In this document: positions 2,906 to 55,115 of the stretch, piece after piece
Layout: every line of letters begins with the position of its first letter
How positions within the stretch are numbered: the stretch's first letter is position 1
From: Clostridia bacterium
GTDB lineage: Bacteria > CBDUZB01 > JAGLHV01
Assembly: GCA_030637025.1 (NCBI GenBank)
Contig: DAOVVV010000009.1
Coordinates: 268 to 64,267, forward strand
Reading direction: 5' to 3'
Length of the DNA: 64,000 nucleotides
Notes under the pieces: model-generated
Seen by the model: the letters and a program-made list of their open reading frames with translations, nothing else
Told to the model about the DNA's origin: nothing
Database searches by the model: none
Position numbers and translations under genes: made by a program

Positions 2906-3167
2906 GAACCTCACCGTAGCAAGCTACGGGGGGTCAATCAATGTCATTCCTGCAAAAACAGGAGTCTATTCCTGTAGATTCCCGCTTTGCAAACTTTGTC
3001 ATAATTCTACTTTAGGTAGCCGCAGGCTTTAGCCTGCGTAATTTTTCCGACGATAACGAAACCTTCCTCCAAAGACGGACAAGAAAGGTTGCAACTACCT
3101 CATAAAAATATGAGTTATGACACAGTGTATTCGCAGGACTGACGCAGCAAGCTGAGGGAATTAGACA
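2906..3167. mobile_element. Nested cluster of non-autonomous palindromic elements (REP doublets, MITE-like ends, micro-insert)
   Basis: ccgtagcaagctacgg hairpin 2914-2929; gtcattcctgc arm 2943-2968; ends actttgtcataa 2993-3004 / ttatgacacagt 3115-3126; GTAG-REP doublet 3016-3098; 19-nt insert 3065-3083. Confidence 0.8.
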
Positions 3168-26238: not shown

Positions 26239-26775
26239 TCATTTTTCACTCAACATTGAAATAACATCTATACCTCTGATATCGTTGGTTCTATTTTGTT
26301 CAGTTAATAATATAATAGTATCTCTCTCTTGTAAAGCAATTTCATCCTTTCCATTTATTCTCGCACAAACCAAATCTTGCTTTCCTAAATCACGAATAGC
26401 TATTTCTACTAACCAGGCAAGTTCTCCTTTACCATAAATAATAAATTTTATATGTCCTTTCTTGTATTCTTTAAGAACTACAGCTTGTATTTTTAATTTC
26501 ATTGTTTTCAATATTTCCATTGTTTTTAAAGTATAATAATAAGATTTCTTTGCTTTTTCGGTAAAACCTTTGGGGGTTAGAAAATACTGGACTTTTTTCT
26601 TGTTTAACTGTTTCACTTTTACATAACCTTTATTTATCAATTTTTTTAAAATAATATTGGTTATCCCCAAAGACATACCCGAGTTTTTAGAAATTTCTCT
26701 CTGGGTAACATTCAAATCTTTGTCTATTTCATTTATTATTTTTAATTCTTTTTCTCTGGATTCTAAAATAATCAT
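26239..26775 (-). CDS. Winged-helix regulator, EPS-associated MarR-like family, with a short C-terminal Rossmann-like domain
   Basis: TQREISKNSGMSLGITN...YFLTPKGFTEK; C-terminal FIIYGKGELA. Confidence 0.85.
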   Translation of the reverse strand: MIILESREKELKIINEIDKDLNVTQREISKNSGMSLGITNIILKKLINKGYVKVKQLNKKKVQYFLTPKGFTEKAKKSYYYTLKTMEILKTMKLKIQAVVLKEYKKGHIKFIIYGKGELAWLVEIAIRDLGKQDLVCARINGKDEIALQERDTIILLTEQNRTNDIRGIDVISMLSEK

Positions 26776-31816: not shown

Positions 31817-31899
31817 GTAGGAAATAACATGAACTTGTCCTGAACATAGTCGAAAGATGTCACCCGAAAATAGAAGGGTTTGATAAATCAAACCCCTAC
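31817..31899. repeat. GTAG...CTAC REP doublet with a 24-nt insert in the first hairpin
   Basis: gtagg-aaataacatgaa[cttgtcctgaacatagtcgaaaga]tgtcaccc ... gggtttgataaatcaaacccctac. Confidence 0.7.
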
Positions 31900-35805: not shown

Positions 35806-35840
35806 TTTTATTTATCCCCCTTCATTTAAAATTGTCCTTA

Positions 35841-36025
35841 TAGACTTCTGCAAAATAACCTTTTTGCCTGCCCGCTCCGCCTCAGGCGCTTGTCCGCCTC
35901 TGGAGGAGATAAGGTGGGTCATTCCTGCGAAAGCAGGAATCTATTGATATTTAAAAACATTATAGATTCCGCATCGTCCGCCTCAGGCGGAGCGGAATGA
36001 CAGAATATTGTATTTTTCAAAACTC
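35841..36025. mobile_element. MITE-like element with a 15-bp target-site duplication, carrying a REP doublet and micro-hairpins
   Basis: Exact direct repeat ttaaaattgtcctta at 35826-35840 and 36026-36040; TIRs agacttctgcaaaata / tatttttcaaaactct (13/16). Confidence 0.88.
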
Positions 36026-36066
36026 TTAAAATTGTCCTTAATTTCACTCCAAATTAATAATTTTTA

Positions 36067-42694: not shown

Positions 42695-42720
42695 TTTTTA
42701 TTCCCCCTTCTTTAAAACTT

Positions 42721-42924
42721 CCCGCCTTATCCGCCTAAGGCGGAGCGAACAAGCAAACTCCCAATTTTTTTTAAAACTCATTTTTTTATCTTTTCTAACC
42801 AATAAAACTGTCTTTTAACCGTCTTTATCTTTTCTCTTCGTTTTTGACTTCGTTGTTGTATTTATCCTTTAACTAATGTAACCAATTTAAACTAATTCAA
42901 CTATCTTTTAACTGTCTTTATCTT
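42721..42924 (+). repeat. Mosaic spacer: micro-hairpin (42721-42754) and nonamer array (42871-42907)
   Basis: cccgcctta-tccgcctaaggcgga-gcgaacaagc; aactaatgt aaccaattt a aactaattc aactatctt. Confidence 0.75.
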
Positions 42925-46473: not shown

Positions 46474-46529
46474 AAAATATACCCTCAAATTCCCAATTTC
46501 CCGACTTAAAGATTGGCGAACAAGCAATC

Positions 46530-53856: not shown

Positions 53857-55115
53857 TTTTTATCTCCTTCTCTCCTTATTTGAGCTCCCAATTGACTTAA
53901 CTTACTTTCTATTGATTCATATCCCCTATCTAAATGGTAAATATCACTAATAGAGGTTTCTCCCTCAGCAATTAACCCGGCTAAAACTAAAGCTGCAGAA
54001 GCACGTAAATCCGTAGCTCTCACCGGAACCCCGCTTAATTTATGAACCCCATTAATCACCGCTAAATTTCCTCTGACTTGAATATCAGCACCCATCCGCT
54101 GTAATTCCCCTACATGCATGAACCTATTTTCAAAAACAGTTTCAGAAATGATACTTTCACCTGAAATGACACTCATAAAAGCCATCCATTGTGCCTGCAT
54201 ATCCGTAGGAAATCCCGGATAAGGAGAAGTATTAATACCTATTGATTTCAAACCTTCGGGTACGCTTACCTCCATTGTGTTTTTATCAATTTTTATTTCT
54301 ACCCCTGCTTCCTTCGCCCTGGCTATTACTATTTCTAAATGCGTTGGATTTACATTTAATATTTTTACTCTACCCCGCGTAAGTGCTACTGCCAGCAAAT
54401 AAGTTCCCGTTTCAATTCTATCGGGAATTACCGAATGCTCAGTTCCTTTCAACTCCTTTACCCCATGAATTTCTATAATATTTGTTCCTGCATTAAAAAT
54501 CCTCGCCCCCATTTTATTTAAAAAAGAAGCTAAATCTACAATTTCCGGTTCACAAGCTACATTTTCTAAAAGGGTCTTTCCTTTAGCCAAAACAGCAGCC
54601 ATCATCAGATTTTCTGTTGCTCCGACACTGGGAAAATCTAAAAATATTTTTTCTCCTTTAAGCCCTTTTTTAGCCGATAAATGAATAAAACCTTCATGAA
54701 TATTTATCTGTGCACCCAATTTTTTAAATCCATCTAAATGTAAGTTTATCGGCCGGGAACCTATAGCACAACCCCCGGGTAAAGAAACCTTAACCTCTCT
54801 ATAACGGGCTAGAAGCGGTCCCATTACCAAAACAGAGGCTCTCATTCTACTTACCAGGTCATATGGCGCTTCCAAACAAATATTACCTGAAGAAGATATC
54901 CATACGTGATCATTCTCTCTTTTTATTGTTTTCCCTAAATGTGTCAGCAAAGAAATAATAGTCTTTACATCATACAAATGAGGAACACTAGCTACAGAAC
55001 ACAGTTCATCGGTTAATAAAGTAGCCATCAGGATTGGTAAAGAAGCATTTTTTGAACCACTTATTGTTAGGGTTCCTTCTAATTTTTTTCCACCATTAAT
55101 AATTATTTTATTCAT
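53850..55115 (-). CDS. murA: UDP-N-acetylglucosamine 1-carboxyvinyltransferase
   Basis: SGSKNA, MRAS, LPGGCAIG, PGFPTDMQ, DLRA, HLDRGYE motifs. Confidence 0.98.
   Translation of the reverse strand: MNKIIINGGKKLEGTLTISGSKNASLPILMATLLTDELCSVASVPHLYDVKTIISLLTHLGKTIKRENDHVWISSSGNICLEAPYDLVSRMRASVLVMGPLLARYREVKVSLPGGCAIGSRPINLHLDGFKKLGAQINIHEGFIHLSAKKGLKGEKIFLDFPSVGATENLMMAAVLAKGKTLLENVACEPEIVDLASFLNKMGARIFNAGTNIIEIHGVKELKGTEHSVIPDRIETGTYLLAVALTRGRVKILNVNPTHLEIVIARAKEAGVEIKIDKNTMEVSVPEGLKSIGINTSPYPGFPTDMQAQWMAFMSVISGESIISETVFENRFMHVGELQRMGADIQVRGNLAVINGVHKLSGVPVRATDLRASAALVLAGLIAEGETSISDIYHLDRGYESIESKLSQLGAQIRREGDKNS

Follow-up and report, generated by a model that had tools for sequence, protein, structure and literature searches.

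The window analysed here, a 64,000-nt stretch of contig DAOVVV010000009.1 from a Clostridia bacterium, belongs to a genome of 2.36 Mb (G000; 77 contigs, 33.5% G+C) and carries two copies of a 19-nt GC-rich unit, both intergenic and at least about 150 nt from the nearest start codon. Copy 1 (3065–3083, minus strand; CTTGTCCGTCTTTGGAGGA) lies within a doublet of inverted, GTAG-tagged repetitive extragenic palindromes (REPs) at 3016–3098 on the plus strand, which resembles a REPIN (REP doublet forming a hairpin). The first partner, REP-a (3016–3038, plus strand; GTAGCCGCAGGCtttaGCCTGCG), has an empty ttta loop, and the second, REP-b (3057–3098, minus strand), reads GTAGTTGCAACCttt-unit-aGGTTTCG, with the unit placed at ttt^a in its loop (^ marks the junction). 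Copy 2 (35889–35907, plus strand; CTTGTCCGCCTCTGGAGGA) lies in a nested host at 35866–35918 on the plus strand (GCCTGCCCGC-TCCGCCTCAGGCG^GATAAG-GTGGG). This host is part of an element of about 190 bp (35841–36028, plus strand) that resembles a miniature inverted-repeat transposable element (MITE) and is flanked by the direct repeat TTAAAATTGTCCTTA at 35826–35840 and 36026–36040. Copy 2 is identical to the consensus of the genus, and copy 1 differs from it at two positions.

The original prediction for this DNA held that the two copies match at 17 of 19 positions in different hosts, that their excision restores intact repeats and that neither is accompanied by a target duplication, and reading both sites bears this out. 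For a 17/19 match of this kind the chance expectation is 4.2e-5 per window and 1.5e-3 per genome, and it was absent from 200 simulated windows (Markov-1), whereas G000 holds four exact copies of CTTGTCCGCCTCTGGAGGA and eight with up to two mismatches. Excision of 3065–3083 leaves ...cgaaacct|aaaggttgcaactac, the ttta-loop form of the partner REP at 3016–3038. Excision of 35889–35907 leaves tccgcctcaggcg|ga, a hairpin found uninterrupted at 35977–35991 (plus strand; TCCGCCTCAGGCGGA) inside the hairpin ATTCCGC...GCGGAAT of the same MITE-like element. There is no duplicated base at either junction. The first base of the unit is C and its last is A, which leaves no room for shifting the junctions along the sequence, and for three copies found with exact flanks the slide is indeed zero. 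When the unit was removed before alignment, ungapped empty paralogues spanning the junction were recovered for both copies, nine for the copy at 3065 and 12 for that at 35889 (best, 95.6% identity over 68 nt).

Very small GC-rich modules form a family here, in which the 19-mer represents the shortest size class. We consider it fairly probable that this unit is a discrete, very small insertion module, which found its way into different single-stranded loops on several occasions, in several lineages, and was then carried along by the repeats that host it.

Insertion into unrelated hosts within one genus

Copies with up to two mismatches to the 19-nt unit CTTGTCCGCCTNTGGAGGA were counted in four genomes of one genus (G000, which carries the window, and G001, G002 and G003), giving 8, 23, 6 and 4 copies, respectively, and none for the reversed pattern used as a control. 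The host REP of the GTAG..GCAGGC type (GTAGNNGCAGGC...GCCTGC) occurs in these genomes 26, 112, 22 and 3 times in its empty form GTAGNNGCAGGCTTTAGCCTGC, with a plain ttta loop, and in 2, 6, 1 and 1 rows (2, 5, 1 and 1 places) with a loop of 20–24 nt. All 10 long-loop rows, which correspond to nine places since one was matched on both strands, contain the 19-nt unit, always at ttt^a, compared with 163 empty copies. Further copies and empty/filled pairs, on whose existence genome-wide the original prediction had made itself depend, are thus both present. Both orientations occur in the same REP loop, forward at ttt^a and reverse at tt^ta.

A third REP type receives the unit in its CTTG loop (empty form GTAGGGGTAGGCT^TGCCCACCC), and the hairpin GCCCAAttta^TTGGGC is a further host. 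Three copies found in the ‘gggtgggca^agcc’ REP of G000, G001 and G002 share a repeat of about 180 bp with unrelated outer flanks; these copies are paralogues rather than orthologues. Taken together, the hosts comprise two REP types, the third REP with the CTTG loop, the hairpin inside the MITE-like element and the GCCCAA hairpin, and they are unrelated to one another.

The nested host of copy 2 is itself a module of the 25-nt family, the loop of which holds a TCCGCC hairpin that in turn holds the 19-nt unit. At the corresponding position of the MITE family, immediately before GTCATTCC, a hand count gave about 30 empty elements, about 20 with the plain 25-nt module (CCTGCCCGCCAGTCCTTAAGGCGGG) and about 12 with the nested form, in which the module carries the TCCGCC hairpin in its loop. 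The window copy also holds the 19-mer and therefore displays four levels of nesting. At the orthologous site in contig C32 of G002 and contig C7 of G003, the whole of 35836–36022, and with it the MITE-like element, is missing, and G001 has other repeats at this site. The 15-nt direct repeat TTAAAATTGTCCTTA around the element looks like a target duplication of unusual length.

The modules of the family have the common layout 5'-C[C/T]TG, [T/C]CCGCC, loop, GG[A/C/T]GG[A/G]-3' and lengths of 19, 24–25 or 33 nt. A census of G000 with a loose pattern yielded 44 members, 33 of them 25 nt long, six of 19 nt, four of 24 nt and one of 21 nt. REP loops also contain the 24-nt form CTTGTCCGCCATCTGTTTGGAGGA and a 33-nt form whose loop has a nested TCCGCC hairpin. 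Ungapped empty paralogues extending across the junction were obtained for 12 of the 18 candidate members in G000 (one or more each; 83–98% identity over 25–80 nt), and no junction shows a duplicated base or flanking microhomology. Two longer members lie on the minus strand of the window, a nested form at 42719–42753 (CTTGTTCGC-TCCGCCTTAGGCGGATAAG-GCGGGAA), which has the same 5' part as the 33-nt form of the REP loops, and a degenerate 25-nt form at 46500–46524 (CTTGTTCGCCAATCTTTAAGTCGGG). In addition, 25-nt modules with 21-nt tandem partial duplications of the hairpin part were observed in G000 (C4:2872–2930, C14:18791 and C45:5817).

The wider set of sites assigned to the same layout by the original prediction stands in part. 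The site at 35866–35918 is the nested host plus the unit, and those at 42721–42754 and 46500–46525 correspond to the two longer minus-strand members. Two further sites find no support as inserted units: ‘cgtg-cccgaaggg’ proved to be a constant part of a 22-copy element, and the loop at 31834 has only three loose copies, including that of the window. The 19-mer forms one imperfect 6-bp stem (a 15-nt hairpin) with a G.A mismatch. The general rule of a CYTG guide followed by a hairpin was not upheld, as this hairpin is weak and TGTC, ATAG and GTAG lead the 5' tags of the 1453 GC-rich perfect hairpins counted in the genome, with CTTG outside the top 25; the tags CTTA and CCTG stem from the unit's own family.

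Distribution across phyla

A scan of a species genome collection with the exact pattern CTTGTCCGCCTNTGGAGGA returned at least 119 stretches, compared with an estimate of about 17 chance matches for 18 fixed bases in 596 Gb on both strands. Among the matches listed, about 86 records account for the 119 stretches, and two or more stretches lie in each of 17 records (hand count). The taxa represented among them are Ignavibacteriales, Flavobacteriales and other Bacteroidota, Desulfobacterales, Gammaproteobacteria, Lentisphaerota, Verrucomicrobiota, Kiritimatiellia, Bacillota and several Patescibacteria; five listed stretches show the REP context of the window's genus (L066, L094, L144, L149 and L168). 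Five carrier genomes outside the genus (G401–G405), which were reached from these matches and belong to five different orders or classes by label, contain 9, 11, 5, 15 and 32 copies, against 0, 0, 0, 0 and 1 for the reversed control. Most carriers are metagenome-assembled genomes; they also include a single-cell genome (L075, L084) and a record labelled as a finished chromosome (L062, L133). In viral contigs, two matches were found, which is about the chance level.

Empty and filled sites also occur outside the genus. In the Ignavibacteriales carrier G401, the empty form GTCATTCCCA^AATGTTTTTATTGGGAAT is present in two copies (plus one variant). Two filled copies were seen there, one with identical flanks and the other with a loop that deviates on its right side. 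In G403, CGCAGGGTTGCA^AACCCTGCG has one empty and two filled copies. Head-to-tail arrays, in which the period is exactly 19 nt, comprise seven copies in L121, next to a heptamer tract, three copies inside a GTAG-tagged hairpin in L160, and two to three copies in each of four metagenome contigs. Because the arrays and the empty/filled pairs give the same ends, they confirm the boundaries of the unit. Hairpins of the GTCATTCC...GGAAT type were seen to host the unit in both the window genome and the Ignavibacteriales carrier; examples are GTCATTCCTGCgaaaGCAGGAAT at 35919–35945 of the window, whose 12-mer has 70 copies in the window genome, and GTCATTCCCA...TGGGAAT at G401:C19:30168–30195.

In a set of 120 distinct contexts, a purine precedes the unit in 100 (A in 64, G in 36) and T or A follows it in 92 (T in 56, A in 36), while positions −8 to −2 are close to random. 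Flanks that can pair with each other over at least 5 bp were found in 6.7% of contexts, compared with 1.7% of shuffled pairs. A tRNA gene was found no more than 150 nt away from six of the 124 cross-phylum copies (L086, L090, L103, L173, L174 and L179), and deletion of the unit restored a tRNA in none of the 124 matches. The flanks in L179 resemble a split tRNA D-arm, and ARAGORN predicted no tRNA across this junction after deletion of the unit.

The intergenic DNA of G000 is rich in degenerate tandem heptamers (TAGTCCA, AGTTATR/TAACTYA, AAGACAA, AGGCACA and ATTGGTT), with tracts at C11:3378–3450 and C26:43926–44150 and, in the window, at 26402–26430, 46816 and 54025–54100. Similar tracts adjoin the 19-mer in other phyla (‘aaaggcacaaag’ in L068 and L111; L121). 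They recall the TAACTGA repeats of Beggiatoaceae (PMC4679880).

Related systems and the search for an enzyme

The closest known system is that of the small dispersed repeats (SDRs) of Nostocaceae, which are, to our knowledge, the only precisely inserting repeats of about 20 nt described so far; they come from one cyanobacterial family, and the mechanism of their insertion is not known. SDR4–6, notably SDR5, were reportedly described by Elhai and co-workers in 2008, who are also said to have noted their nesting and their occurrence in the company of tandem heptamer repeats. Judged by these descriptions, the unit resembles SDRs in being about 20 nt long, dispersed, multi-copy and non-coding, in inserting precisely into palindromes or repeats, and in nesting; with its 19-, 24–25- and 33-nt forms, it agrees with a definition of SDRs as dispersed repeats of about 21–27 nt inserted precisely in other repeats or palindromes, and the window genome is likewise rich in the tandem heptamers reportedly found in the company of SDRs. 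It differs in occurring in a non-cyanobacterial lineage (in which the genome count of the palindrome HIP1 is 1) and in many phyla, and in targeting the loops of GTAG-tagged REPs and the hairpins of MITE-like elements rather than HIP1. The 21-nt SDR5 is inserted precisely between the third and fourth base of HIP1 and has no known function (PMC4390886, PMC13756078, PMC5861425), and SDRs have been reported only in Nostocaceae (PMC5861425).

With REPs, REPINs and their REP-associated tyrosine transposases (RAYTs), the likeness lies in the hosts, which have the GTAG tag, stems of 6–7 bp and inverted doublets, and in the presence of a RAYT-like gene in the genome. The unit itself is REP-like in its layout of four bases followed by an imperfect hairpin. 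In contrast to REPs, it lacks a GTAG or CGTC tag and starts with CTTG or CCTG; it forms no inverted doublets and occurs singly, nested or head-to-tail; and it does not flank any of the 33 Y1 loci examined. The E. coli REP transposase requires GTAG and cleaves between C and T (PMC3479197), and this C^T rule does not fit the unit, because its junctions lie before the first C and after the last A.

Elements of the IS200/IS605 group differ at their two ends and are inserted beside a target tetra- or pentanucleotide of fixed sequence. Like these elements and their palindrome-associated miniatures, the unit leaves no target duplication, as the exact empty/filled pairs show, combines an imperfect hairpin with a short conserved run and likely uses single-stranded targets. 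However, its left flank is variable, with a bias at position −1 only, and instead of two distinct subterminal hairpins it has its one imperfect stem. MITEs, as elements of 70–300 bp with terminal inverted repeats and target duplications, are far from a 19-nt unit that has neither, although the element of about 190 bp that carries the nested host, with its 15-nt direct-repeat flanks, is MITE-like. Judged by the features that define these groups, the unit is not a REP, an IS200/IS605 derivative or a MITE. Rolling-circle elements of the IS91/Helitron type also insert without target duplication and have a hairpin before a fixed 3' tetranucleotide. The unit read in reverse orientation resembles them, in that A tends to precede it and T to follow it and its hairpin likewise stands before a constant 3' tetranucleotide, but it is smaller by orders of magnitude, and the corresponding Y2_Tnp domain (PF04986) was found in only one of the five carriers, G405, and not in the other four. 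No description of this 19-mer was found in the literature searched, a search with sequence words returned unrelated primer matches only, and the literature on REPINs and RAYTs, on nesting and on loops yielded nothing relevant to the unit.

The original prediction assigned the movement of the unit to an HUH-type enzyme guided by CYTG, encoded by Y1/HUH genes that the motif should flank. G000 has three Y1_Tnp genes. One encodes a RAYT-like protein of 178 aa (G000:C73:745–4035; L003 1080–2060), and its reading frame includes two GTAG REPs that have CTTG loops. The stretch of about 190 bp between these two REPs is repeated just upstream and downstream of the gene. The products of the other two genes (315–329 aa) are fusions of Y1 with a DnaA_C-like helix-turn-helix. 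These genes are bounded not by the unit but by terminal inverted repeats of their own, of 23–32 bp and about 1.05–1.09 kb apart, as seen for the copy on contig C6 of G000 and for four homologues examined in G402 and G405. Elements of this kind (315–343 aa) lie in L001 (inverted repeats at 1410–1432 and 2400–2422), L181, L182 and L186, with many copies in G402. Homologues were detected in four of the five carriers, but G402 and G405 alone have full-length ones, and G401 yielded none.

Around 33 Y1 loci in nine genomes (13 and 20 in two sets), the unit was not found within about 1.5 kb at up to four mismatches, and only L002 and L203 had one match each, to a related perfect-hairpin type. A tblastn search with the three Y1 proteins against the 119 listed loci matched only two of them, and clustering of 3413 open reading frames from these loci revealed no family present in more than 10 loci and no recurrent neighbour gene. 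The presence of Y1_Tnp (PF01797) in a genome says little in itself, as the domain was found in 126 of 197 unrelated genomes. With none of the 33 Y1 loci flanked by the motif, a variable left flank and junctions that do not follow the C^T rule, the idea of an HUH-type enzyme with a CYTG guide finds no support. The HUH model is an analogy, in which a Y1/HUH-type single-strand nuclease-ligase would be our leading guess for a candidate.

Origin and movement of the unit

Of the proposal that the 19-mer is a mobile unit, the fixed ends and the precise, scar-free insertion in unrelated hosts hold, and the occurrence in other phyla strengthens them, whereas the HUH/CYTG mechanism is unsupported, and much of the spread has taken place together with the hosts. 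Several results weigh against repeated insertion of a discrete module. Most copies in G001 belong to one REPIN sub-family sharing ‘cagggc’ and a CTG loop, so that much of the copy number in this genome reflects amplification of filled hosts, and in G404 one context is filled in 10 of 10 copies. When the flanks of eight REP-hosted copies in G000 were compared with their nearest neighbour, this was empty in five cases and another filled copy in two, with one tie, among comparators comprising 63 empty and seven filled copies, an outcome that favours neither repeated insertion nor spread with the hosts. The presence/absence polymorphism between strains or reads foreseen by the original prediction was not seen: no orthologous site in the genus, whose genomes are only 75–88% identical, showed an insertion polymorphism; the contigs of four public runs (X1, X3, X5 and X6) break at every repeat, and their joints around 35865–35918 are MITE paralogues rather than alleles. 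The public runs that contain the window (X1–X4; share 0.95–0.97, labelled cold seep metagenome) may include its source and therefore provide no independent support. When metagenomes were scanned for the two alleles of this locus at 35889, no stretch was returned. In 397 unrelated genomes, the unit gave 13 matches in nine genomes, compared with five control matches in five genomes; since it is this rare, part of the single matches among the at least 119 stretches must be due to chance, and its distribution, with multiple copies in carriers and few in this sample, is patchy. Finally, the unit's own hairpin is weak (DNA dG −2.1 kcal/mol, z −1.2), and none of the neighbourhood, Y1-locus and Y2 searches linked an enzyme to the unit.

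An unlikely explanation, although the strongest of the rivals, is that the filled loops are long-loop variants of REP and MITE hairpins, which arose a few times when similar GC-rich palindromes recombined or took part in template switching or gene conversion, and then spread only with their hosts; the likeness across phyla would then derive from horizontally shared families of the REP/RAYT type. REP families in which short and long self-complementary loop variants coexist have been described, as have REP families common to distant organisms (PMC3733652), and the host-linked sub-families of G001 and G404 agree with this explanation. So do the reticulate variants, such as the common 5' half of the 33-nt form and the element at 42719–42753, the fact that the unit is only three mismatches away from the reverse complement of its own nested host, and a chimera in L049 (G001:C165, around position 2000), in which a MITE-type host on the left and a REP-type host on the right meet at the unit, as if two filled elements had recombined there. 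However, hosts without any likeness in at least three distant lineages contain the same 19 nt with the same ends, and the flanks of empty and filled copies are identical to the base. Moreover, head-to-tail arrays of exactly 19 nt and both orientations in one REP loop speak against it, and the junctions lack flanking microhomology that could drive slippage.

The exact conservation across phyla, including the G.A stem mismatch and the GGAGGA run, could alternatively reflect a selected functional site that was recruited repeatedly, either a binding site for a widespread protein or an RNA hairpin in which the Shine-Dalgarno-like GGAGGA run pairs with an imperfect partner. We regard this as improbable, given that the unit occurs in both orientations, inside the loops of other repeats and in tandem arrays, that neither copy in the window comes closer than about 150 nt to a start codon, and that no recurrent neighbour gene accompanies it in the 119 listed loci. 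The window furthermore contains no Rfam family at gathering level, and the two rows found at E ≤ 1 are at chance level. Least credible of all is a chance resemblance or an assembly artefact, which the predominance of metagenome-assembled carriers and the position of some single matches in apparent coding sequence might suggest. The eight copies in G000 stand against 1.5e-3 expected, the reversed control gave zero or one match in all nine family-carrying genomes, and several copies per genome lie in genome-specific contexts, also in the record labelled as a finished chromosome and in the single-cell genome.

Returning to the discrete insertion module that we favour, we propose the following hypothetical scenario, in which (i) the unit is, or until recently was, copied by sequence-specific cutting and joining into transiently single-stranded DNA, above all into hairpin loops; (ii) at the preferred junction, the unit would follow a purine and precede T or A; (iii) the responsible enzyme would act in trans; and (iv) once inside a REPIN or MITE, the unit would be multiplied passively by amplification of its host. 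We infer the steps that lead from an inserted unit to one mobilised by a dedicated enzyme. The unit may be among the smallest mobile DNA units. A more far-reaching version, to which we give clearly less than an even chance, considers CTTGTCCGCCTNTGGAGGA as a pan-bacterial, horizontally spreading selfish DNA of 19 nt, which copies itself into single-stranded hairpin loops and, as the 19-nt arrays would reflect, beside itself. Its movement could then depend either on a candidate trans-acting strand-transfer enzyme or on hijacked replication and repair enzymes of the host.

There is as yet no settled view of the way in which REPs, REPINs and other very small repeats move, and the exact ends, the many empty/filled pairs, the arrays and the cross-phylum range of the 19-nt unit make this question directly testable. 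Our results indicate that ‘long-loop variants’ of REPs can be insertions of a separate element, and the preference of the unit for loops could report DNA that is extruded or single-stranded in vivo. If the selfish interpretation is true, the unit would be the smallest mobile element of cross-phylum range and a natural reporter of single-stranded bacterial DNA.
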